DNA of 64,000 nt from contig CAZBFM010000001.1 of NCBI GenBank assembly GCA_964491455.1, positions 345,893 to 409,892 on the forward strand, in the 5' to 3' direction. Origin of the DNA: an uncultured Candidatus Saccharibacteria bacterium (GTDB lineage Bacteria > Patescibacteriota > Minisyncoccia > 2-02-FULL-40-12 > GWA2-44-9). Below are positions 3,589 through 38,184 of the stretch, one piece after another. A model generated the notes under the pieces. The model was not told where the DNA came from, ran no database searches, and was given only the letters and a program-made list of their open reading frames with translations. Numbering within the stretch: position 1 is the stretch's first letter; the number at the start of each line of letters is the position of its first letter. The position numbers were made by a program, and so were the translations under genes.

Positions 3589-4719
3589 TCAACACCTCGC
3601 TATAAAATCACAGATATGAAGCGCTCGATTTTTCCACGTATAACGCCTCACTGACTCTTTAGCTTTTGATGCGCGCAGATCATCCTCCGAAAGTGCGCGC
3701 CGAATGCCACCGGCCATCGAAAGCGCATCATCGGGAATCACAAACACAGCCGCGTCGTCGGGAAGAATTTCACGGATGGAAGGCAAATCGGATGCGACTA
3801 TGGGTGTACCCGAAGCCATGTATTCGAATAACTTCAGCGGAGATGTATAGCGACTTGAAATCTTTTCCTTCTGCGAATTTGGAAGCGCCACAACATCACC
3901 CGCTCGCAGGTATGTCGCAACATCGTGATGAGGTACAAATCCTCGAAACACAATATTTTTTTGCTCACTATAGTTCGCTTTGTATGCTTGTATGTCTTCA
4001 GGAGTCCCCCCGACGAGAACGAATAGCACATCCTCTAATCTCGCTGCAGCGCCCAGAAGCGTCTCGACACCTTTCCATCCATACAAATGCCCCGCGTATA
4101 CAACAATCTTACTATCCTGCGGCAAATCAAGCGCTGTTCGCGCAGTAGAGCGGCTTGGAACCCCCTGGAACATACCAAGATCAACCCCATCCGGGGCGAC
4201 GCCAATGCGTCCCGGATATACTTCCGCAACATCGTCACGCAAACCATTCGATATAGCGATAACCCCGCCAATAGCATGTAGCACCTTCCGATATAGGTAC
4301 GAATGAATGTTGCTCGGCATTGAATGCATCTCCCAATACATCGGCATTCCCAGCGACCGAAGCGCGAAAAGCGCGAAAGGATCGCGAGAGTATATGACAC
4401 CACCCTTCCCCGAAAGATACCTTCGCACAGCATAGCCAAAGAATAGCTGTTGCAGCCAAAAAAATATCTTTGCGAGAGGAGCATATCTGGTAACCGTAAT
4501 AAAATCCGCCGCAGGAAGTCGTGTTACTTTGAACGGATATTGGATTCCGTAATATTTCATTGGATCTCGTTCGGTGATTGACGGATAAGTTCGACGATCT
4601 GGAATAATCAACTCACACTCCACACCACAAGAAGCAAATGCTTCGCACATCTTCATAATTTGAAGTCCATGCGCCTTTGGAGTTGGCAACTGATTATTGG
4701 CAACGTAATAGAGTTTCAT
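3589..4719 (-). CDS. Family-4 glycosyltransferase
   Basis: C-terminal EX7E-type motif (LFEYMASGTPIVASD). Confidence 0.75.
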   Translation of the reverse strand: MKLYYVANNQLPTPKAHGLQIMKMCEAFASCGVECELIIPDRRTYPSITERDPMKYYGIQYPFKVTRLPAADFITVTRYAPLAKIFFWLQQLFFGYAVRRYLSGKGGVIYSRDPFALFALRSLGMPMYWEMHSMPSNIHSYLYRKVLHAIGGVIAISNGLRDDVAEVYPGRIGVAPDGVDLGMFQGVPSRSTARTALDLPQDSKIVVYAGHLYGWKGVETLLGAAARLEDVLFVLVGGTPEDIQAYKANYSEQKNIVFRGFVPHHDVATYLRAGDVVALPNSQKEKISSRYTSPLKLFEYMASGTPIVASDLPSIREILPDDAAVFVIPDDALSMAGGIRRALSEDDLRASKAKESVRRYTWKNRALHICDFIARC

Positions 4720-5729
4720 GCGTTCAGTCCTGTTATTCGGAGCACCTCAGACATTCTGTCGAGATACGTATGCGACGCTCGGGTGCGTTCAAACCCGGCA
4801 CGAGCGATCCGCATACGCTCCTCGTCATGAACCAGATAGTATGCGGCTTTTTCTCGTATATCGTGCTGATCATGAAATGGGACGAATTCCTCCCCCTCAC
4901 TGAAGAGCTTATAAATCTCCTTCTTATCATCTCGGTTTAGTAAGAATCCGCCCGCACCGGTGATTTCAAATGGGCGCACGTTTACGCCAGTACCAAGCAC
5001 ATCGGATACATGCATGCTAATGACCACCTTGCTGCGCGCGTAAATGCTCGCCATCTCCAGAGCAGAAGGGTACCCGTGATAGACATCCCGCAAACTCGTA
5101 TCTTTCCAGGCTTTATTTCCCCATATATGCAGCCCCAAGTCTTTTACCCGAGCTAGAATATGCTCGCGATCCGCATATCGAACGCGATCATACGAACCAA
5201 TAAATGAGATGGGGTACTCGAAGTCAGCGCTGGGAAATACTGCATCCTTCGAAATATCGGCGCAGAATGGAAGATAGTTGGCGCAACGATATCCAGCATC
5301 AGAGAGCGCAGAAACAACGAGAGGATCAAAGTTAAAAAAATGGGTGTAGTGCGGTGCAATGCGAAGTATCCGCTGAAGATGGTCCATCGTTTCTGGATAC
5401 CAATTCACAACAACCGAATTCCGACGAAGTTCGTCGAGCATATCGAGCCCCAGAGCCTTCCCTTTAGAGACGAATATGAGATCCGGTTGAAATCGACGAG
5501 CAACATTGAGAATGTGATGATCCACCTTCCGTAGCTCCCTCTGGCGAAGAGGTTCGCGGATAACGGCAGGAAGCTTATCGAATATGCGCTGCGGCATTGT
5601 ATTCGTCATCAGCAACGTTGTCCCCAAATAATCAGCGAACTGAACCTCCCACCCGAGCTGCTGGAATGCTCGCGTGATCGGTTCAGTAAAAATTGAATAT
5701 CGCTGGCTAATGAGAAGTACTTTTTTCAT
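4716..5729 (-). CDS. CgeB-like / DUF3880-type glycosyltransferase
   Basis: GT-B-like C-terminus (ITGAGGFLLNRDD ... FVPF), no classic family-4 motif. Overlaps neighbours by 4 nt. Confidence 0.45.
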   Translation of the reverse strand: MKKVLLISQRYSIFTEPITRAFQQLGWEVQFADYLGTTLLMTNTMPQRIFDKLPAVIREPLRQRELRKVDHHILNVARRFQPDLIFVSKGKALGLDMLDELRRNSVVVNWYPETMDHLQRILRIAPHYTHFFNFDPLVVSALSDAGYRCANYLPFCADISKDAVFPSADFEYPISFIGSYDRVRYADREHILARVKDLGLHIWGNKAWKDTSLRDVYHGYPSALEMASIYARSKVVISMHVSDVLGTGVNVRPFEITGAGGFLLNRDDKKEIYKLFSEGEEFVPFHDQHDIREKAAYYLVHDEERMRIARAGFERTRASHTYLDRMSEVLRITGLNA

Positions 5730-6579
5730 GTGATGGCTCCCCTAGTACTGCAATGCGAATTCTGAATTTTACCGCCCCATACAGAAGAAGCCACTTATAC
5801 TGAACACGTCGAAATTCGTATGCAGGTGGAAGCGACTCAGAGAAACCGTGACGGGCGTACATCCAGATGATGCGAACTATTGTCCAGACCAAACCACCAA
5901 CATTTCTATATACAATCCAGTACAAGAAGTCTTTGAGTGGAATTTTCACCGCTTCACGAATCTGAATTTGAATGTGTCCACGATTTAGATTTGGCTCATA
6001 CGGTGGAATACCCCCCTGTGGTTCAACAATCACAAACCAGGGATTCTTCATGGTTCCTACGGGAAACTTCTGGGTATCAAATGCGAGCCGCGAGTGAGGC
6101 GTCCGCTCGTGTCGAATCCCGGATGCTCGATTCATGAGACGCATCTGGTACCCAGGATACGCAGTCGAATACTTCATTTCACGTCCATTGAAATTGATAT
6201 GCCCAGGAAGCCGCCAAATATAATGCGTAATAGGATCCGTTGTGACGATTGTTCGAATCTCCTCAGCAGTACGCGAAGGAAGCTCTTCATCGGTATCAAG
6301 ATAAAAGTTCCAATCGTAGCGCCCCTCCTCAATAGCTTTATTTCTGAGAGCGGCGACATCTTTGAATCGATAATTCGGCTGATCGGTATCAGCCTGCTTA
6401 ACAATGTGACTCGTGTATTCACGAGCAATGGCGAGCGTGTCGTCGGTACTATTGCCATCGAGAATGAGGATATCGTCAAAGTCCTTCAAGCTCTCCAAGC
6501 ACCGACGCAGCACACGACCCGAATTCAACGTGAACACTTGCACCGTACATGGTATCTTTTTATTACCCTCGGAAGACAT
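5707..6579 (-). CDS. Family-2 glycosyltransferase
   Basis: VQVFTLNSGRVLRRCLESLKDFDDILILDGNSTDDT GT-A motifs. The internal ATG at 6579 (MSSEGNKK) is the likelier start because the ORF otherwise overlaps the upstream gene by 155 nt. Confidence 0.7.
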   Translation of the reverse strand: MSSEGNKKIPCTVQVFTLNSGRVLRRCLESLKDFDDILILDGNSTDDTLAIAREYTSHIVKQADTDQPNYRFKDVAALRNKAIEEGRYDWNFYLDTDEELPSRTAEEIRTIVTTDPITHYIWRLPGHINFNGREMKYSTAYPGYQMRLMNRASGIRHERTPHSRLAFDTQKFPVGTMKNPWFVIVEPQGGIPPYEPNLNRGHIQIQIREAVKIPLKDFLYWIVYRNVGGLVWTIVRIIWMYARHGFSESLPPAYEFRRVQYKWLLLYGAVKFRIRIAVLGEPSHEKSTSH

Positions 6580-18875: not shown

Positions 18876-21800
18876 TTAGTTAGAAACCGTAGCAGTGTTG
18901 GTTGGGTAGGTGAAGATGTTCGTACCCGTCGAGAGCAAGCCTGGGTTGCCACCATTTACATCGTCAAATGTAAACGTTGCAGCAGATCCGAGCTTTGTTC
19001 CGAACGAGCTTGTACCAGCATTACCGAGCGATCCACCGATATTCGAGAAGTAAATATCGAATACCTTCGTTGTACCCGCGGTGACCGTATAGCCATTCGT
19101 GAAGGATACAGTCTCGCTACCAGTTGAACTAGTACTGACACTGAACACAGCAGGAGTCGTGGTTGTGATAGTCGTATTACCATCCTTGACCAAGATTGAT
19201 GTGCCAGCGGTTGTTCCACTCGATGAAGCAGTTGCTCCACCTGTCGTGAAGAACGTCAATGGAAGGTCATGCAACGTTATGTTTCCGCTCAATGGCGCTG
19301 AAACAGTGAATGTCGCAATCTTTACCTGACCATTAACCAACTTAGCATCTGCAGGTGCTGCGATCGCCAATGTTGGATAGCTTGCAATCAAGCGCATCGT
19401 TCGGGCAGCCTGCGAGACAGCTGGGCTCGTCTTTACAGTGTTACCAGACGTGTACTTAATCTCATCCAAGGTAAGGATAGATGTATCGTTTGCCTTCGCT
19501 ACTCCACCAAAACCAACGGTGTTGTAGGTGACCGTGACTGGTACATCAACTCCTGAGAATCCGGATGGGATTGCGATTGCCAAGCCAGAGACTGATGCTA
19601 CCCCTGAGATAACCGTGGCATCTTTGCCGGCTACAGTAATCTTCGAGATAGTACCTGCGCTCGAGCTACCGGTGACAGTAAAGTGCATGTCAGTAACCGT
19701 TGCTGTGCCAGCTCCGGCAGACATTGACATATGATACTTAGCAACTGTCACCGTAGAACCAGCAAGTACGTACTGACCAACCATCGAGTCGTTGGACAAC
19801 GTGGTTGTTGCCATCGTTGCGAGCGAGAAGGTGATCGTCTGTCCCGCAAAGCTCGAGAAGCCAAGACCGGAAGTACCGGTGTCGACACCTGAAGCTGTAA
19901 CGGTATACGTACCCTGAATCGTGGAGCTGTTAGATCCCGACGCTACATTGCCAGCATCGGCGTATACAGTGATCACGCGACTCTCATTCTTTGCAAGGGT
20001 GAAGTTCGTTGAGAAGTTGTTCGTTGCCTGAGGCAAAATCGGAGTCGTATTCTCCGAAATGTACAAGTTCGCGTACTTATTGATGTTCGCACCCGTTACC
20101 GCGAGAGCAACCTGAACGTTGCTAACACGGATCGGCTCAGCATTTCCTGCCTGGATAACGATGGCACCGATCTTAACTTTCGTCTGGTTTGGAGACTCAA
20201 CATGGGACGACACCGATGTGTCCAATGCCTTCGTCAACGCACCCGTAACGAGCGTCAAGGTTGGTCCAGTGATACCACTCGTTGATGGAACTGTTGAGAC
20301 TGCACCAGAGCTCACACCCTGTGCATTGTTCGAAACACCCATCAAGGTAGCTGCGACAGAAGTACCAACAGAGTTGACTCCACTGGTCTTCGAATCGAGG
20401 CGCACTTCGACTGTGGTTGAAGAGCCTGCAGCGACAACCAATGATGAACCGAGGTCAAACGTCAACTGAGCACCGACGAAATTCTTAGCGCTGGCAACTT
20501 GCGAGCCATTAACCCACAGAGACACGTTGTCCAAATTGATGTGTCCCGGAGAGGAAATACTTGCAACAAGCTGCGAGATCTTCATGTCTTCGCCATAACC
20601 GGTAAGGATATAGCGGGCGACAGGAATACTCGATGCACCAGTAACAAAGTTCGTGGTGTTGAACGTGGAGTCGGTCTGCACTGAAACTGAACCAGCTGGA
20701 ATCGTCAACGACGTTGCGGTCGTAGGAACTGTGCCACCAAGTGGCATGTTCGCTCCGTACTGCGAGTCGGTGATGATTACGTCAGCCTTGTTCTGAATGG
20801 CGAAACTGTAGGTTCGGTTGGAACCCTTCACGATATCACCACGAAGCTCAAGGGTGTGGTTGTTGCTCTTAACGAGATAACCAACGGATCCCATATCGAA
20901 GTCAACCATACTGCCATCAGCATTGATGGTACCCGCCGCGACGAGGACGGAGTCCAAGTAGAGGTTGTAGTTTCGGATAGCATCAACTGGCATAGAGCCA
21001 ACCTGCTTGAAAGCAACGTGCTTCAAGTATGCATCGCGAACAGTTGTGTTGAACGAAGCTGACCAAAGTGTGTAGCCAGGTGCGTTCGCACTCGACGGTG
21101 CACTGGTAGCTGTGTTGGATCCAACAGTCACTCCGGCCAACGACGCAGTAGCGATACTGTGTAGATTTCCGGAAACACTCATGACACTGTCATTGAGCTG
21201 TGTGAGCTGAACACCAACGGTCTCGCCGGAGCTTCCCGCCATATCAGCACGAACGCTGAAAGTAGCTGGAGCTGAGAAGAAACCTGCTGAGTTGGCGAAG
21301 GTGATCGTGCTGGTTGTAACCGTAGCAGAATCAGAGACTCTCTTGTTACCAACGAAGAGGTAGACATTCGCGAGAGAGGCATCCGCTGACAAGCCGACTC
21401 TCTTGAGGACTACTTTCGTTACCAATCCCGATCCGGACACTGCGAAGTGGGCCAGATCAACAGCTGCTGCTGTTGAAACGATAGCTCCACTTGCTGGGTT
21501 GTCGGATGCGAGAGAAGCGCTCAATGGACCGGTTGAGACTGTGGTGCCACGGCTGTAGTTAGGAACCTGGAGGACAGACGTGTAGTCTGCGCCCATTCCA
21601 TACAAAGCCTTTTCAGCAGCATTGATGGTGAAGACCTTCTTGAAGAAGTTCGCATCATCGGCAACTGCCTGTGCACCGGTCGTGTTGACCCAGCGAAGGT
21701 TTGCTACATCCTCGGACACGACGTCCAAGCCATAGACCTTTGCATCACCATCAACGCGGAAGAGACCAGAGGTCACGAACGCATCGCGGGTGGAAGGTGC

Positions 21801-22073
21801 AACTTCCTTCACCTTGCTCCAGCCGAGGTGGCCGTAGAGGTTGAAGATTGCTGGGTTTACAAACAAGCGCTTGTAGCCCATATCATTGACGATATACAAA
21901 TCGAGATCGCCAGTGGCGCGGATCACGTCTCCTTCGCGGAGTCCGAAATCTGCTGGAGCGACTGCGTATGCTGCAACTGGGAAGGCTGCGAAGCCTGCCA
22001 AGGAGAGCACCGTAGACGCCATCGTCAGGCTTGCCGCAACGGTGCGGACGTAGCCCTTGATAGAATTAGACAT
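18876..22073 (-). CDS. Large secreted Thr/Ser/Gly/Ala/Val-rich surface protein (S-layer or adhesin candidate)
   Basis: A 1065-aa protein with an N-terminal signal peptide (MSNSIKGYVRTVAASLTMASTVLSLAGFAAFPVAAYA), almost no charged residues and a beta-rich composition. It has its own terminator and a 630-nt upstream leader. Confidence 0.7.
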   Translation of the reverse strand: MSNSIKGYVRTVAASLTMASTVLSLAGFAAFPVAAYAVAPADFGLREGDVIRATGDLDLYIVNDMGYKRLFVNPAIFNLYGHLGWSKVKEVAPSTRDAFVTSGLFRVDGDAKVYGLDVVSEDVANLRWVNTTGAQAVADDANFFKKVFTINAAEKALYGMGADYTSVLQVPNYSRGTTVSTGPLSASLASDNPASGAIVSTAAAVDLAHFAVSGSGLVTKVVLKRVGLSADASLANVYLFVGNKRVSDSATVTTSTITFANSAGFFSAPATFSVRADMAGSSGETVGVQLTQLNDSVMSVSGNLHSIATASLAGVTVGSNTATSAPSSANAPGYTLWSASFNTTVRDAYLKHVAFKQVGSMPVDAIRNYNLYLDSVLVAAGTINADGSMVDFDMGSVGYLVKSNNHTLELRGDIVKGSNRTYSFAIQNKADVIITDSQYGANMPLGGTVPTTATSLTIPAGSVSVQTDSTFNTTNFVTGASSIPVARYILTGYGEDMKISQLVASISSPGHINLDNVSLWVNGSQVASAKNFVGAQLTFDLGSSLVVAAGSSTTVEVRLDSKTSGVNSVGTSVAATLMGVSNNAQGVSSGAVSTVPSTSGITGPTLTLVTGALTKALDTSVSSHVESPNQTKVKIGAIVIQAGNAEPIRVSNVQVALAVTGANINKYANLYISENTTPILPQATNNFSTNFTLAKNESRVITVYADAGNVASGSNSSTIQGTYTVTASGVDTGTSGLGFSSFAGQTITFSLATMATTTLSNDSMVGQYVLAGSTVTVAKYHMSMSAGAGTATVTDMHFTVTGSSSAGTISKITVAGKDATVISGVASVSGLAIAIPSGFSGVDVPVTVTYNTVGFGGVAKANDTSILTLDEIKYTSGNTVKTSPAVSQAARTMRLIASYPTLAIAAPADAKLVNGQVKIATFTVSAPLSGNITLHDLPLTFFTTGGATASSSGTTAGTSILVKDGNTTITTTTPAVFSVSTSSTGSETVSFTNGYTVTAGTTKVFDIYFSNIGGSLGNAGTSSFGTKLGSAATFTFDDVNGGNPGLLSTGTNIFTYPTNTATVSN

Positions 22074-22706
22074 TATCTAGGGTGAACCTCATCTCGCTCC
22101 ACCGTATCGCCTCCCTACTGGGGGACGAGCAATGAGAGGGGAAGAGGGTATTAAACTGCACTGCACTGCTTGCGTCACTCCGTCTTTCGACGAAGCAACT
22201 GGATCTTGTTCGAACACGCAGGCCGCACACATTGCTGTATACGGTTCCGAGTACTCCCACTTCGACCAAGGAGCATCGGACTCCTCGCTGAAATAACTAC
22301 CAAGACCCGTTCTGGTGACTACGGAAAGGGTTCTTTCGCTTCCATATTCGGTCATGCAACATTTGCAACAGTATGATCTTGCTTATCCTTTGTTTTCAAC
22401 GTTCTTTCCTGGGCTGTCCATCTTTGGGGCCACTAGCCACAAAGATCGAAAGCTCAAGCACCAAAATCAAGCCAAAATGGCTTTTTTGATGACCTGTCAA
22501 GGGTTTGAAGGGTACTTTTACCGCGGCTATACGCAGTGGGAGCGGTGACCTCTAGGATAGCAGATAGGCAAGAAAAGTCAATACTTTCCTCACCAACTGC
22601 GAACCACTGCCCGACTCAGAAACCGTGGTAACAAAATCATTATAGCGAAACTCCGAAAGCCAACAATAGCATTTTTGTGGATAAACCAAGTTAATTTCCA
22701 CTACTT

Positions 22707-25270: not shown

Positions 25271-25494
25271 GGGGAGAGTAGGGAGTTGGCAAATTCGTAC
25301 CAACCACTAGAACCTCCGCTAACATCGCATCTAGTACGAAGCGTAAACGTACAGCGCCAGGGCCCGCAACGAAACAATGCGCGGCACCTTCGCGAAACAA
25401 TCAGCTCATCCCCCTACCTCTCAAAAAGTTATCCACAGGTTATCAACGTTTACCTATGTACGCGAAACGTCGATATGTCGCAAAATCACGATGG

Positions 25495-33826: not shown

Positions 33827-34447
33827 CTATTTTACGGGTTTTTCATGCGTCACCAGCTTCCCCGCAGCTATCTCAACGGGATCAGCTCGACGAAACAATC
33901 GTCGCACACTCAATGGCGTCACAGCGCGGTGCCTACTCTCATCGAGCCTCTCTGCAACGTACCAGACATCGTCTTCGCTCGTGAGCCAGCCAGCTCCACA
34001 TCGCTTCACCACGGGAAAGGGGTCTGAATAATCAATCATAGTTTTGCGCCCACTATCGAGGAAGTACTCATGGAAATACGACATAGCGAGCTCACGGATT
34101 GAGCGATACACAGGCTCGCGATATCGAAGCACCGCATGATTTGTTTTGGAGATCGCGCCCCATAGCGAACCGACACGAAACAGGGTCACAACGTGATCTA
34201 AATCATCTGGCGTGGAACGAAGATCCAAAAGATAGGGCGTCTTCCCCTGCACATGCAACGCCGCAGCTGCAACCAATGCTCCCTCAATGCAATGCGCAGT
34301 GCGCTCGCGGAGCACGCGACGTGGCGAACGCAACATATCGTTGCCATCATCAAAACTGTAGGGAATCTCTTCGAGAAAATCTTGAATCTTGCGAGGCGTC
34401 GAAAGCTTCTTGAGAACCCTTAGCTCGTCGCGCGTGAATGCATCCAT
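33827..34447 (-). CDS. Hypothetical protein with a possible papain/transglutaminase-like Cys-His arrangement
   Basis: TAHCIEGALVAAAAL ... DDLDHVVTLF. Very tentative. Confidence 0.3.
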   Translation of the reverse strand: MDAFTRDELRVLKKLSTPRKIQDFLEEIPYSFDDGNDMLRSPRRVLRERTAHCIEGALVAAAALHVQGKTPYLLDLRSTPDDLDHVVTLFRVGSLWGAISKTNHAVLRYREPVYRSIRELAMSYFHEYFLDSGRKTMIDYSDPFPVVKRCGAGWLTSEDDVWYVAERLDESRHRAVTPLSVRRLFRRADPVEIAAGKLVTHEKPVK

Positions 34448-35201: not shown

Positions 35202-36182
35202 TTATTTCGATTCAAAATGTGATGCGATGTAGGATTGCGCTTCTGACATCTTCAGCGATGTCGAGCCATTGCCAGTACGAATATAGAGCTCTTCACGCTC
35301 CTGCTCGCGCAGGTACACAGGTCGATCTGACGGCTGCACAGAGACGAGCATACACTCCTTCTCCTGATGGGTAAATGGTTGCATACGCACAAGACTCCGA
35401 TAGGATGGCCCCATCATCGATCCAACAAGATTTGAAAAGTGATTCTGGAATCCATCTGCATCGCGCCGAGGCAACGATGCGTAGTCGGCGTCGAGCCCAA
35501 TCGCCTCTCCCTGATCACCAATGCCGAGCATGAGATGTCCACCGGCTGTATTCATAAATGCTGCAACGGTTTTCAGTGCAGCCTTCTCGAGATTTTTATT
35601 GACGGATTGCGAATGCAAATCCCATCGTAGTGTACTTTTTCGCTCGAGCTGTTCGTGCTCTGGCAATGCTACGAGCGCATGCGGATCCACAGAAACGACA
35701 CCTCCTCCGTTTTTCTTTTTTTGCATGAGCTCCTCCACAAACTCTTGCGGCTCCGGCATGCTATCGAGCGACACCAGCACCTCTCCCTTGGCATTCATAA
35801 TATCAACTCTCCCGTAGTGCGTACGTCGACCCAAGAGACTCTGTCGAAATGTAATCGTAGCTATCTCATTGAGGGCCACCGCCGTGCGCGTATGCATAAT
35901 AATTCCTCGGTCATAGGTGAGCTGGTCCCGCGTGACTCGTATCACCTGTCGATGCCATGCAATAAACATGTACATGATCAAGCCAATCTCTCCAATAAAG
36001 AGAAAAACTGCCTGCGCGATGGAGAAATCGATATCGCGAATATACGGAATGGATCTCCAAATCTGCGCATAGTATGCCAGCGATGCTGCAAGCGCATACA
36101 GTGCCGCCGTAGCAAATTGCAACGCGATGAAATTACCGACAATGACGATGGGACTCTTACGATACTGAACAACATTCTTCAT
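35202..36182 (-). CDS. Membrane protein fusing a YdbS/YdbT-like bacterial PH domain with a C-terminal AlbA_2 (Schlafen-like) domain
   Basis: Two TM helices and a PH region, then TVAAFMNTAGGHLMLGIGDQGEAIGLD matching the AlbA_2 core. The ATG at 36182 is preferred because 36266 overlaps a promoter palindrome. Confidence 0.55.
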   Translation of the reverse strand: MKNVVQYRKSPIVIVGNFIALQFATAALYALAASLAYYAQIWRSIPYIRDIDFSIAQAVFLFIGEIGLIMYMFIAWHRQVIRVTRDQLTYDRGIIMHTRTAVALNEIATITFRQSLLGRRTHYGRVDIMNAKGEVLVSLDSMPEPQEFVEELMQKKKNGGGVVSVDPHALVALPEHEQLERKSTLRWDLHSQSVNKNLEKAALKTVAAFMNTAGGHLMLGIGDQGEAIGLDADYASLPRRDADGFQNHFSNLVGSMMGPSYRSLVRMQPFTHQEKECMLVSVQPSDRPVYLREQEREELYIRTGNGSTSLKMSEAQSYIASHFESK

Positions 36183-36249
36183 ACGGGTTGTATCGTAGCA
36201 TCCCCATATCGTGGAGCAATGAGGACGCTTTTTCTTATCCACAATTGAC

Positions 36250-36267
36250 GGTGTACAAACGTACACC
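36250..36267. promoter_or_regulatory. Perfect palindrome GGTGTAC-AAAC-GTACACC in the divergent promoter region; candidate LexA operator
   Basis: Read directly. It lies 13 nt upstream of the lexA ATG (36280) and about 85 nt upstream of the AlbA_2 gene start. Confidence 0.45.
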
Positions 36268-36279
36268 TACACTACGGGT

Positions 36280-36849
36280 ATGGATGAGACCTCTTCTACA
36301 AACCGCATAGCAGATTTCTTTCGTACGCATCATCGCATGCCGACATGGCGTGAGATGATGCGCATGTTCCGCTACCGCTCACCAAATGCCGTCACCAAGC
36401 TGGTCGATCGGCTCGTCGAGAGCGGTGCCCTCCAGCGCGACGCCACGGGTCGCATCTCACTCGTGAATCCATTCAACCACACGCGTGTGCTCGGCACCGT
36501 CGAAGCAGGATTTCCCTCCCCAGCAGAAGAAGAGCTCGCAGACACCATGAGCATCGATGAATGGCTCATCGGCAACAAAGAAGCCACCTTCATGCTCAAA
36601 GTGCGAGGTGAATCTATGAAGGACGCGGGTATTATGCCGGGCGACATGGTACTCGTGGAGCGCGGCCTCACTGCACGGGACGGAGACATCGTGATTGCCG
36701 AAGTAGACCACGCCTGGACAATGAAATACCTCCGTCACGTCCACGGTCGCGTCGTACTTGAGCCTGCCAACGAACGATTCAAGCCAATCTACCCCACCGA
36801 AGATTTGAGCATCGCCGCCGTTGTAAAAGCAGTCATTCGTAAATACTAA
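36280..36849 (+). CDS. lexA: LexA repressor (wHTH plus S24 peptidase)
   Basis: N-terminal wHTH, then VRGESMKDAGIMPGDMVLVER ... TMKYL, the Ser/Lys dyad region. Confidence 0.8.
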   Translation: MDETSSTNRIADFFRTHHRMPTWREMMRMFRYRSPNAVTKLVDRLVESGALQRDATGRISLVNPFNHTRVLGTVEAGFPSPAEEELADTMSIDEWLIGNKEATFMLKVRGESMKDAGIMPGDMVLVERGLTARDGDIVIAEVDHAWTMKYLRHVHGRVVLEPANERFKPIYPTEDLSIAAVVKAVIRKY

Positions 36850-36852
36850 TCC

Positions 36853-38184
36853 ATGCCACCAACACCACTCCTACGAGCGAGTTATCCTCGCGCAGTGCTT
36901 CATATTGACGGAGACGCCTTCTTTGCATCATGCGAACAGGCCCGCGATCCAGCGCTCAAAGGCAAGCCCGTCATCACCGGCCTCGAGCGTGGCATCGCAT
37001 CATCGATGAGCTACGAAGCCAAAGCACGAGGCGTTACGCGCGCGATGCCACTGCACGAAATCCGTCGTCTTATCCCTGATGCGATTATCCTCCCATCCGA
37101 CTACGAAACATATTCACTTCTTTCTCGTCGCTTGTATGAGATCGTGCGTCGTTGGACGCCTGATGTGGAAGAATACGGCATTGATGAATGTTTCGCCGAC
37201 ATCACCGGCTTACGTCGACTTCACCATGCAACATACCCGCAGATTGCCAGTCGCATTCAAGAGGCACTCCGCACTGAATTAGGGTTCACCTTTTCCGTTG
37301 GTCTCGCCCCCACCAAAGTGCTTGCAAAATTAGGATCAAAATGGAAAAAGCCCCATGGCTTCACCGCAATTGCGGGACATCAGATACACACTTACCTCGA
37401 AAAGCTTCCCGTGGCGTCCGTGTGGGGCATTGGAGCGCAAACCACGGCAATGCTTCAGCACTTCAACATCACCACCGCTCTTGAATATGCTCGCATGCCA
37501 CTCGAATGGGTATTCGCTCACACCCACAAGCCCCTCCAAGAAATCTGGCAGGAGCTCAATGGCGTGTCAGTCCTCGGTCTTACTACGGCCGCAAAAACAA
37601 CCCAAGCATCCATACAAAAATTCAAAACATTCACGCCACCATCTGTCGACAGATCGTTTATCATCGCGCAACTATCACGCAATATTGAAAATGCATGCAT
37701 CAAAGCGCGACGCTACAATCTTGTCACACGAGACCTTCTCTTCATTCTTCGCACGCAGCAATTCCAGCACTCAGCTGTTGAGGTGCGCCTCGCACAACCT
37801 ACATCTCTCCCTGGCCCCATGATCGCGGCAGCTCTCAAGGCACTCCCCCAGCTTCTGCATCCTGGAGTTCCCTATCGTGCCACGGGAGTTGTGCTTACAA
37901 ATATGACCAGTGAAGCCCAAGAACAACCCGACCTCTTCGGCGCAAGTATCGAGGTAGAGCGACTTCGACGCGTCTTTGAAAGTACGGATGCGCTAGATGA
38001 AAAATACGGCAAACACGCCGTCTATGTCGCCTCCAGCCACCTCGCAGCTACCCATGCACAACACGACGGTCAGCGCGGCCATGTACCTCAACGAAAAACG
38101 GATCTCCTACGTGGCGAGACAGCACGACAACGCTTGAGCATCCCCATGCTCATGGGGCGAGAGCTGAGCGATCAATCGATATAA
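36853..38184 (+). CDS. dinB: Y-family translesion DNA polymerase (DinB/UmuC-like)
   Basis: HIDGDAFFASCEQARDPALKGKPV with the catalytic D-x-D and E. Co-operonic with lexA. Confidence 0.8.
   Translation: MPPTPLLRASYPRAVLHIDGDAFFASCEQARDPALKGKPVITGLERGIASSMSYEAKARGVTRAMPLHEIRRLIPDAIILPSDYETYSLLSRRLYEIVRRWTPDVEEYGIDECFADITGLRRLHHATYPQIASRIQEALRTELGFTFSVGLAPTKVLAKLGSKWKKPHGFTAIAGHQIHTYLEKLPVASVWGIGAQTTAMLQHFNITTALEYARMPLEWVFAHTHKPLQEIWQELNGVSVLGLTTAAKTTQASIQKFKTFTPPSVDRSFIIAQLSRNIENACIKARRYNLVTRDLLFILRTQQFQHSAVEVRLAQPTSLPGPMIAAALKALPQLLHPGVPYRATGVVLTNMTSEAQEQPDLFGASIEVERLRRVFESTDALDEKYGKHAVYVASSHLAATHAQHDGQRGHVPQRKTDLLRGETARQRLSIPMLMGRELSDQSI

Follow-up and report, generated by a model that had tools for sequence, protein, structure and literature searches.

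Recent work has identified prokaryotic Schlafens as tRNases that are activated by phage and whose trigger is set by the domains fused to them, phage defence having been demonstrated by experiment for a DUF262-Slfn fusion, while 30% of prokaryotic Schlafen genes have no association with defence. Their catalytic centre is the Ex4(E/D)xK motif, also that of the mammalian SLFN11, and in the tRNase CbCash its counterpart is formed by residues E17/D22/K24. In this report we describe a gene from a 64,000-nucleotide stretch of the genome of an uncultured Candidatus Saccharibacteria bacterium (contig CAZBFM010000001.1, positions 345,893 to 409,892; hereafter the window), which stands divergently to the lexA-dinB operon and encodes two transmembrane (TM) helices, a bacterial pleckstrin homology (PH) domain and a C-terminal AlbA_2 domain. 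We read this PH-AlbA_2 protein, with a probability of about 0.5, as a membrane-anchored prokaryotic Schlafen, a predicted tRNA-type endonuclease that would be gated by its TM/PH module and expressed from a promoter of its own, the operator in the shared intergenic region belonging to lexA.

The fusion of two TM helices and a YdbS/YdbT-type PH domain to an AlbA_2 domain, which had been proposed from the sequence alone, was confirmed by Pfam, hydropathy and structure prediction, and is real and uncharacterised. The C-terminal half scores 57.8 bits against SLFN_AlbA_2 (PF04326; cut-off 25.3) and the preceding domain 35.2 bits against bPH_2 (PF03703; cut-off 22), while NCBIfam holds no family model for the protein. 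Two hydrophobic segments precede the PH domain, with maxima of 1.83 and 2.06 on the Kyte-Doolittle scale (19-residue window), and hydropathy nowhere exceeds 1.0 past residue 90, leaving no candidate for a further TM segment. Lysine and arginine residues flank the predicted cytoplasmic sides of the helices, from which an N-in/C-in topology is predicted, with both soluble domains in the cytoplasm. An AlphaFold2 model built from the family alignment has a mean pLDDT of 83, exceeding 90 through the greater part of the AlbA_2 domain, and its comparison by Foldseek matched the Schlafen side, at a probability of ~1.0, to 3LMM, 5YD0 (SLFN13), 9NYY (SLFN14), 7ZEL (SLFN11) and 7CUX, with SLFN5 also among the matches, and the PH side to PH domains that include the bacterial 3DCX and 3HSA.

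The start of the gene is fixed by its homologues, the N-termini of 30 of which align at ATG 36182. The minus-strand open reading frame (ORF) spans 35202-36266 and is open up to GTG 36266, a start that would place the operator inside the gene and that the same alignment rules out. Longer ORFs in relatives (407 amino acids in L003, 549 in P0020) are antisense read through lexA. The extent given in the sequence-only reading, 35202-36279, takes in the gene and the region shared with lexA, while the gene itself ends at 36182 and the intergenic region (36183-36279) measures 97 nt, not 98.

The residues E175-HEQL-E180-R-K182, which form an Ex4ExK motif, are invariant together with D223 in the alignment of 30 homologues, an invariance that suggests catalysis has been retained. 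In profile comparison, the family matches the nuclease lobes of SLFN14, SLFN13, SLFN5, SLFN11 and SLFN12. By sequence, fold and motif the protein belongs both with the prokaryotic Schlafen family and with the bPH_2 membrane proteins.

Placed beside the prokaryotic Schlafens (pSlfn1-55, for example RorSlfn5 and EcoSlfn7/DUF262-Slfn, and the CRISPR-associated Cash), the protein has the same AlbA_2 domain above the Pfam threshold, the same Ex4(E/D)xK motif and the same plan of a single-lobe domain fused to a non-catalytic, possibly regulatory, module, and its nearest AlbA_2 sequences include DUF262, TIR, STAND and HsdR fusions. It differs from them in that its C-terminal AlbA_2 domain is tethered by a two-TM hairpin and a bPH domain, and in that the gene sits in housekeeping synteny, with no defence island and no PADLOC match. 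The mammalian Schlafens (SLFN11, SLFN13, SLFN14) share the fold and the active-site motif, the profile matching their catalytic C-lobe and, less strongly, their N-lobe, but they have two lobes instead of one, carry a helicase domain, lack the membrane anchor and are only ~15-18% identical. With the YdbS/YdbT bPH_2 membrane proteins the likeness is confined to the N-terminal 150 residues, in which two TM helices are followed by a cytoplasmic bPH_2 domain; YdbS and YdbT themselves are without a nuclease-type domain, and in the family described here some orthologues do without the PH domain. Membrane or PH fusions go unmentioned in the main text of the two recent prokaryotic Schlafen papers, and the literature searched does not mention bPH_2 together with AlbA_2.

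The bacterium is of the Paceibacteria type, and the closest genome on record is a Candidatus Paceibacterota metagenome-assembled genome, with 98% identity at the protein level and ~90% at the DNA level. More widely, the bPH_2 and AlbA_2 architecture occurs in more than 100 clusters at 90% identity, with source names of Yanofskybacteria or 'YdbS-like' and a JGI label on homologues of 'membrane protein YdbS with pleckstrin-like domain'. An exhaustive search found ~60 full-length clusters at 50% identity and thousands of proteins that share just the AlbA_2 subtype, and in the genome collection the full-length members come from Patescibacteria and a few Chloroflexota. Some orthologues have no PH domain, their two TM helices being joined straight to AlbA_2. 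Two of these (P0085 and P0105) occupy exactly the same chromosomal site as the window gene. In L085 (4001-4798) and L086 (4001-4702), contigs both filed under GCA_040961665.1, which may be a mixed bin, the PH-less orthologues stand at the same position between rpsT and a peptidyl-prolyl isomerase (PPIase) gene, keep the TM hairpin and have AlbA_2 domains 61-68% identical to that of the window. Many relatives of 240-280 amino acids in other phyla are likewise 2TM-AlbA_2 proteins, so that, taken with the PH-less orthologues, the conserved core of the family is a membrane hairpin and a Schlafen domain. Elsewhere, the AlbA_2 domains most similar to those of the family (35-47% identity) form the C-terminal part of fusions with TIR, HsdR, STAND NTPase, GmrSD_N/DUF262 or TPR domains.

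No operon partner is conserved across the whole family, gene contexts being conserved within sub-clades only. In Bacteroidota and others (L051-L080, gene at ~5700-6460 in each), a 2TM-AlbA_2 protein of 253-267 amino acids, near-identical between genera, lies in an ion- and metal-homeostasis cluster that runs P-II-like protein, Fur family, STAS, the gene itself, bestrophin, MgtC, P-type ATPase, CzcD and HlyD; this distribution suggests a mobile island. In several Patescibacteria an HMA P-type ATPase or an HMA-DsbD-cupredoxin protein is encoded immediately upstream of the PH-AlbA_2 gene or in its vicinity (L009, 3668-5917; L037, 4389-5975; also L008, L013 and L017), which echoes the context of the Bacteroidota islands.

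Under the interpretation we favour, the two-helix hairpin and the YdbS-type bPH domain would tether the AlbA_2/Schlafen domain to the membrane's inner face, where it would act as a metal-dependent endoribonuclease, directed at tRNA as in the characterised Schlafens. A single-lobe Schlafen domain would have to pair or oligomerise for activity, and the TM/PH module could either supply this assembly or gate it on a membrane- or envelope-associated cue. Transcription of the gene would start at a near-leaderless sigma-70-type promoter of its own (TTGCTC-16-TACGAT-9-ATG) and probably continue into the PPIase gene that begins 15 nt past the stop codon, while LexA would repress the leaderless lexA-dinB operon through the adjacent palindrome. 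A membrane-anchored Schlafen that carries a PH domain, keeps a stable place among housekeeping genes of ultra-small Patescibacteria and has 2TM-only relatives in other phyla would extend the present picture of prokaryotic Schlafens and add to it a membrane-associated trigger or a non-immune role, and its compact size of 326 amino acids would make it a convenient model of how single-lobe Schlafen domains become active.

The divergent orientation of the gene and lexA-dinB and the perfect palindrome in the shared region, both noted in the sequence-only reading, were borne out, and the palindrome could be identified further. The palindrome, GGTGTACAAACGTACACC, has the form GGTGTAC-N4-GTACACC, is the sole perfect TGTAC-N4-GTACA within the window and fills exactly the 17-nt spacer of the lexA promoter, the -10 of which ends 6 nt upstream of the lexA ATG, a distance identical in six relatives. 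It is conserved in at least eight relatives as GGTG[A/T]AC-N4-GT[A/T]CAC at a fixed distance to the lexA ATG, with half-sites GAAC...GTTC in L003 (5929-5948), L022 (~4616-4633) and L091 and GTAC...GTAC in the window, L001, L005, L083, L087 and L092; the two half-sites have changed in step, which is what binding by a dimeric repressor would lead one to expect. We conclude from this pattern that the palindrome is the LexA operator of an autoregulated lexA-dinB operon, with a transcript that appears to be leaderless. The strict pattern yielded no further LexA box in the window, the upstream region of uvrB included. Compared with SOS lexA-dinB operons that use a Gram-positive-like GAAC-N4-GTTC box, the locus has a dyad likewise spaced by 4 nt (GAAC-N4-GTTC itself being found in relatives), the same overlap of the operator with the lexA promoter and the same placing of a Y-family polymerase after lexA, but in the window the half-site is GTAC instead of GAAC, the transcript is predicted to be leaderless and a DnaA-box-like element, TTATCCACA, abuts the -35. 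This element, with 0-1 mismatch, adjoins lexA in L001, L003, L005, L022, L083 and L087; the perfect DnaA-box consensus occurs in three copies in the window against 0.37 expected (the others at 22676-22684, minus strand, and 25429-25437, plus strand), and the element beside lexA could serve as an upstream promoter element or let DnaA act on lexA. The lexA promoter offers a clear case, from an uncultured lineage, of an SOS operon that is leaderless and autoregulated and in which both operator half-sites change jointly.

A separate promoter is suggested for the PH-AlbA_2 gene. Relatives in the clade, with or without lexA, carry a TAnnnT hexamer 6-9 nt ahead of the start codon, and the orthologues that have it show no Shine-Dalgarno sequence, so that, compared across the window (36268-36282 and 36180-36197) and L003, L005, L022, L083, L086 and L087, both divergent genes look leaderless. 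The window and L001 differ by 11% in their intergenic DNA, and all 11 substitutions lie outside the two promoters, the operator half-sites and the DnaA-like box. Counted from the putative transcription start at ~36185, the operator occupies positions of about -65 to -82, 31 nt beyond the candidate -35 and outside the core promoter, and does not overlap the gene's own promoter as it would be expected to in an SOS gene. The distance from operator to gene start also varies, from 48 nt (L003) and 57 nt (L087) to 82 nt (window, L001), 90 nt (L005) and 142-143 nt (L083, L092), while that from operator to lexA is fixed.

The same independence is seen in the wider synteny. The lexA-dinB pair is present in ~7 of 16 syntenic loci (window/L001, L003, L005, L083, L087, L091, L092) and absent from ~9 (L081/L088, L082, L085, L086, L002, L084, L089, L090, L093), where the order is uvrB-rpsT, PH-AlbA_2 gene, PPIase gene. 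The pair behaves as a 1.9-kb unit present or absent between rpsT and the gene, which makes the divergent arrangement mainly an accident of synteny. The nine lexA-less loci keep the gene and its -10 element, and no GWAC-N4-GTWC box stands upstream of the gene in L081, L082, L085, L086, L089, L090 or L093; nor was a LexA-like box found within 200 nt upstream in ~30 further full-length loci, a search by the same pattern, which a direct-repeat LexA motif of the kind that distant Patescibacteria may use would escape. The operator does not, then, accompany the orthologues whatever their neighbour. Direct LexA control of the PH-AlbA_2 gene in the window is, on these comparisons, unlikely, and the SOS regulation that the sequence-only reading drew from the shared palindrome is unsupported in that form.

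Several points weigh against the interpretation we favour, and we set them out together with the alternative explanations. The candidate promoter of the PH-AlbA_2 gene is weak by consensus (7 of 12 matches), falling below the threshold of the consensus scan and going unlisted by it. If instead the single LexA operator governed both divergent promoters, the membrane Schlafen-like protein would be an SOS gene, acting for example in damage-triggered shutdown of translation as SLFN11 does. For this speak the immediate divergent neighbourhood of lexA in nearly half of the clade loci and the compact arrangements of L003 and L087, in which the operator ends ~8-15 nt from the -35 region of the gene and the promoters stand almost back to back, such that bound LexA could interfere and some LexA influence there is conceivable. 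A distant Patescibacteria lineage (L016, 309-2795) has, moreover, a lexA-like (S24) gene, a PD-(D/E)XK/Cas4-like nuclease gene and the PH-AlbA_2 gene on one strand with gaps of 12 and 59 nt; as its nearest relatives are without lexA nearby, it is, by gene order, a second, independent juxtaposition with lexA, within the same apparent operon. Repair genes also recur as neighbours in other sub-clades (uvrA-uvrC-ddl in nine loci, uvrB, dinB, tag), but their enrichment, by a rough estimate, is not significant after allowing for shared synteny and is a hint only. Together with L016 they make a looser, family-level link to DNA damage possible. We nevertheless consider shared control by LexA rather unlikely: in the window the operator lies outside the core promoter, its spacing to the gene is variable, the lexA-less loci do without a box, and LexA control would also bring the PPIase and other housekeeping genes of the same apparent operon under SOS. 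A narrower version, in which some Patescibacteria would have wired a membrane-tethered Schlafen-type RNase into the DNA-damage response, through LexA where the promoters are compact (L003, L087) or where lexA is clustered with the gene (L016), is quite unlikely. If true, it would provide a bacterial counterpart of the tRNA cleavage that SLFN11 couples to DNA damage, an analogy that holds only if the link to lexA is real, and a non-defence, vertically inherited class of prokaryotic Schlafens.

The remaining points concern what the protein does. Some AlbA_2 domains that carry this motif are annotated as no more than DNA-binding, the nuclease role here being a prediction, and the family, with no defence island around it and almost absent from viral contigs, may not share the defence role of other prokaryotic Schlafens. 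The association with defence islands, which had been put forward as a check on the sequence-only reading, was not found: PADLOC has no match for the protein, and neither the 133 genes at +/-2 gene positions in 38 loci (Pfam and PADLOC; scattered generic PADLOC matches only) nor the window from 18.9 to 50.4 kb contains a defence system, so that the gene lacks a defence-gene context. A phage origin was rejected, 2.9 million viral contigs containing one distant relative, of AlbA_2 only. One alternative reverses the roles of the two halves, with AlbA_2 as a nucleic-acid sensor and the 2TM(-PH) hairpin as an effector; on binding foreign nucleic acid the protein would oligomerise and permeabilise the membrane, a single-protein abortive infection system likened to the TM effectors of CBASS, Pycsar and type III CRISPR. 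The closest AlbA_2 relatives are always C-terminal and fused to effectors or enzymes such as TIR, HsdR and GmrSD_N, and the minimal conserved unit is 2TM and AlbA_2, as such a design would have it. Set against the invariant Ex4ExK and D223, published work that takes prokaryotic Schlafen domains as the effectors, the lack of a defence-island context and a vertically stable, syntenic locus, it is decidedly improbable. A non-immune housekeeping or stress role, as a membrane-tethered factor that binds or processes nucleic acids (handling imported DNA or RNA for nucleotide salvage in reduced bacteria, or serving as an RNase linked to membrane or metal stress), would agree with a housekeeping synteny that is stable in relatives of 45-98% identity, with the absence of defence genes nearby and the single viral relative, with the recurrence of heavy-metal and ion transport neighbours in Patescibacteria and in the Bacteroidota islands, and with the substantial share of prokaryotic Schlafen genes outside defence. 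We regard this role, too, as unlikely, given a family that is far from universal, nearest AlbA_2 domains that sit in typical conflict-system fusions, and no specific pathway partner conserved across the family. The role of the membrane-anchored Schlafen may thus be an immune one or a lineage-specific one in stress or housekeeping.

Coordinates of the PH-AlbA_2 gene, its domains, the shared intergenic region and the adjoining genes (positions in the window)
Feature	Position	Strand	Basis
PH-AlbA_2 gene, coding sequence of the 326-amino-acid 2TM-bPH_2-AlbA_2 protein	35202..36182	-	stop codon included; ATG 36182
TM helix 1 (residues ~12-34)	36081..36149	-	hydropathy; helix 12-34 in the AlphaFold2 model
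TM helix 2 (residues ~53-76)	35955..36026	-	hydropathy; AlphaFold2 model
Bacterial PH domain, bPH_2 (residues 77-151)	35730..35954	-	Pfam; PH-fold matches
AlbA_2/Schlafen nuclease-type domain (residues 175-309)	35256..35660	-	Pfam; PDB profile matches SLFN14/13/5/11/12; Foldseek
Ex4ExK motif (E175, E180, K182)	35637..35660	-	invariant columns of the homologue alignment
Putative -10, TACGAT, 9 nt before ATG (near-leaderless)	36192..36197	-	TAnnnT conserved in clade relatives
Putative -35, TTGCTC, 16-nt spacer	36214..36219	-	3/6 consensus matches
DnaA-box-like element abutting the lexA -35	36235..36243	+	conserved beside lexA
lexA promoter, TTGACG (-35), 17-nt spacer, TACACT (-10)	36245..36273	+	promoter consensus scan
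LexA operator, perfect palindrome	36250..36267		dyad; conserved in relatives
lexA	36280..36849	+	TIGR00498 equivalog, 121.7 bits (cut-off 110.95); Peptidase_S24, 86.8 bits
dinB (Y-family polymerase), 3 nt after lexA	36853..38184	+	IMS/IMS_C (Pfam)
Cyclophilin-type PPIase, N-terminal TM/signal segment	34524..35186	-	Pfam; same order in L081-L087

Most genes around the PH-AlbA_2 gene are housekeeping genes. Among the 133 neighbours in the 38 loci, ddl, uvrC, pgi, lepA, thioredoxins and transporters predominate, and those of the window between 18.9 and 50.4 kb include queA, ruvA, uvrB, HhH-GPD glycosylases, AhpC, FKBP and an ABC transporter. Some smaller features touch the lexA loci: a 16-nt inverted repeat (36326-36362), 88% complementary with a 5-nt loop, lies in the 5' part of the lexA coding sequence; upstream of the L016 lexA there is again a DnaA-box-like element, and just upstream of that lexA an ATACCA direct repeat; and in L082 (3479-3492) a LexA-box-like TGTAC-AATA-GTTCG stands between uvrB and rpsT, at a site with no lexA-dinB, and may be a remnant or a chance match. 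Two further proteins are encoded on the minus strand of the window, one by a 1065-amino-acid ORF without a Pfam match (18876-22073) and the other, of 206 amino acids (33827-34447) and without a match in Pfam, NCBIfam or PADLOC, by a gene that is syntenic downstream, at 61-93% identity in relatives.

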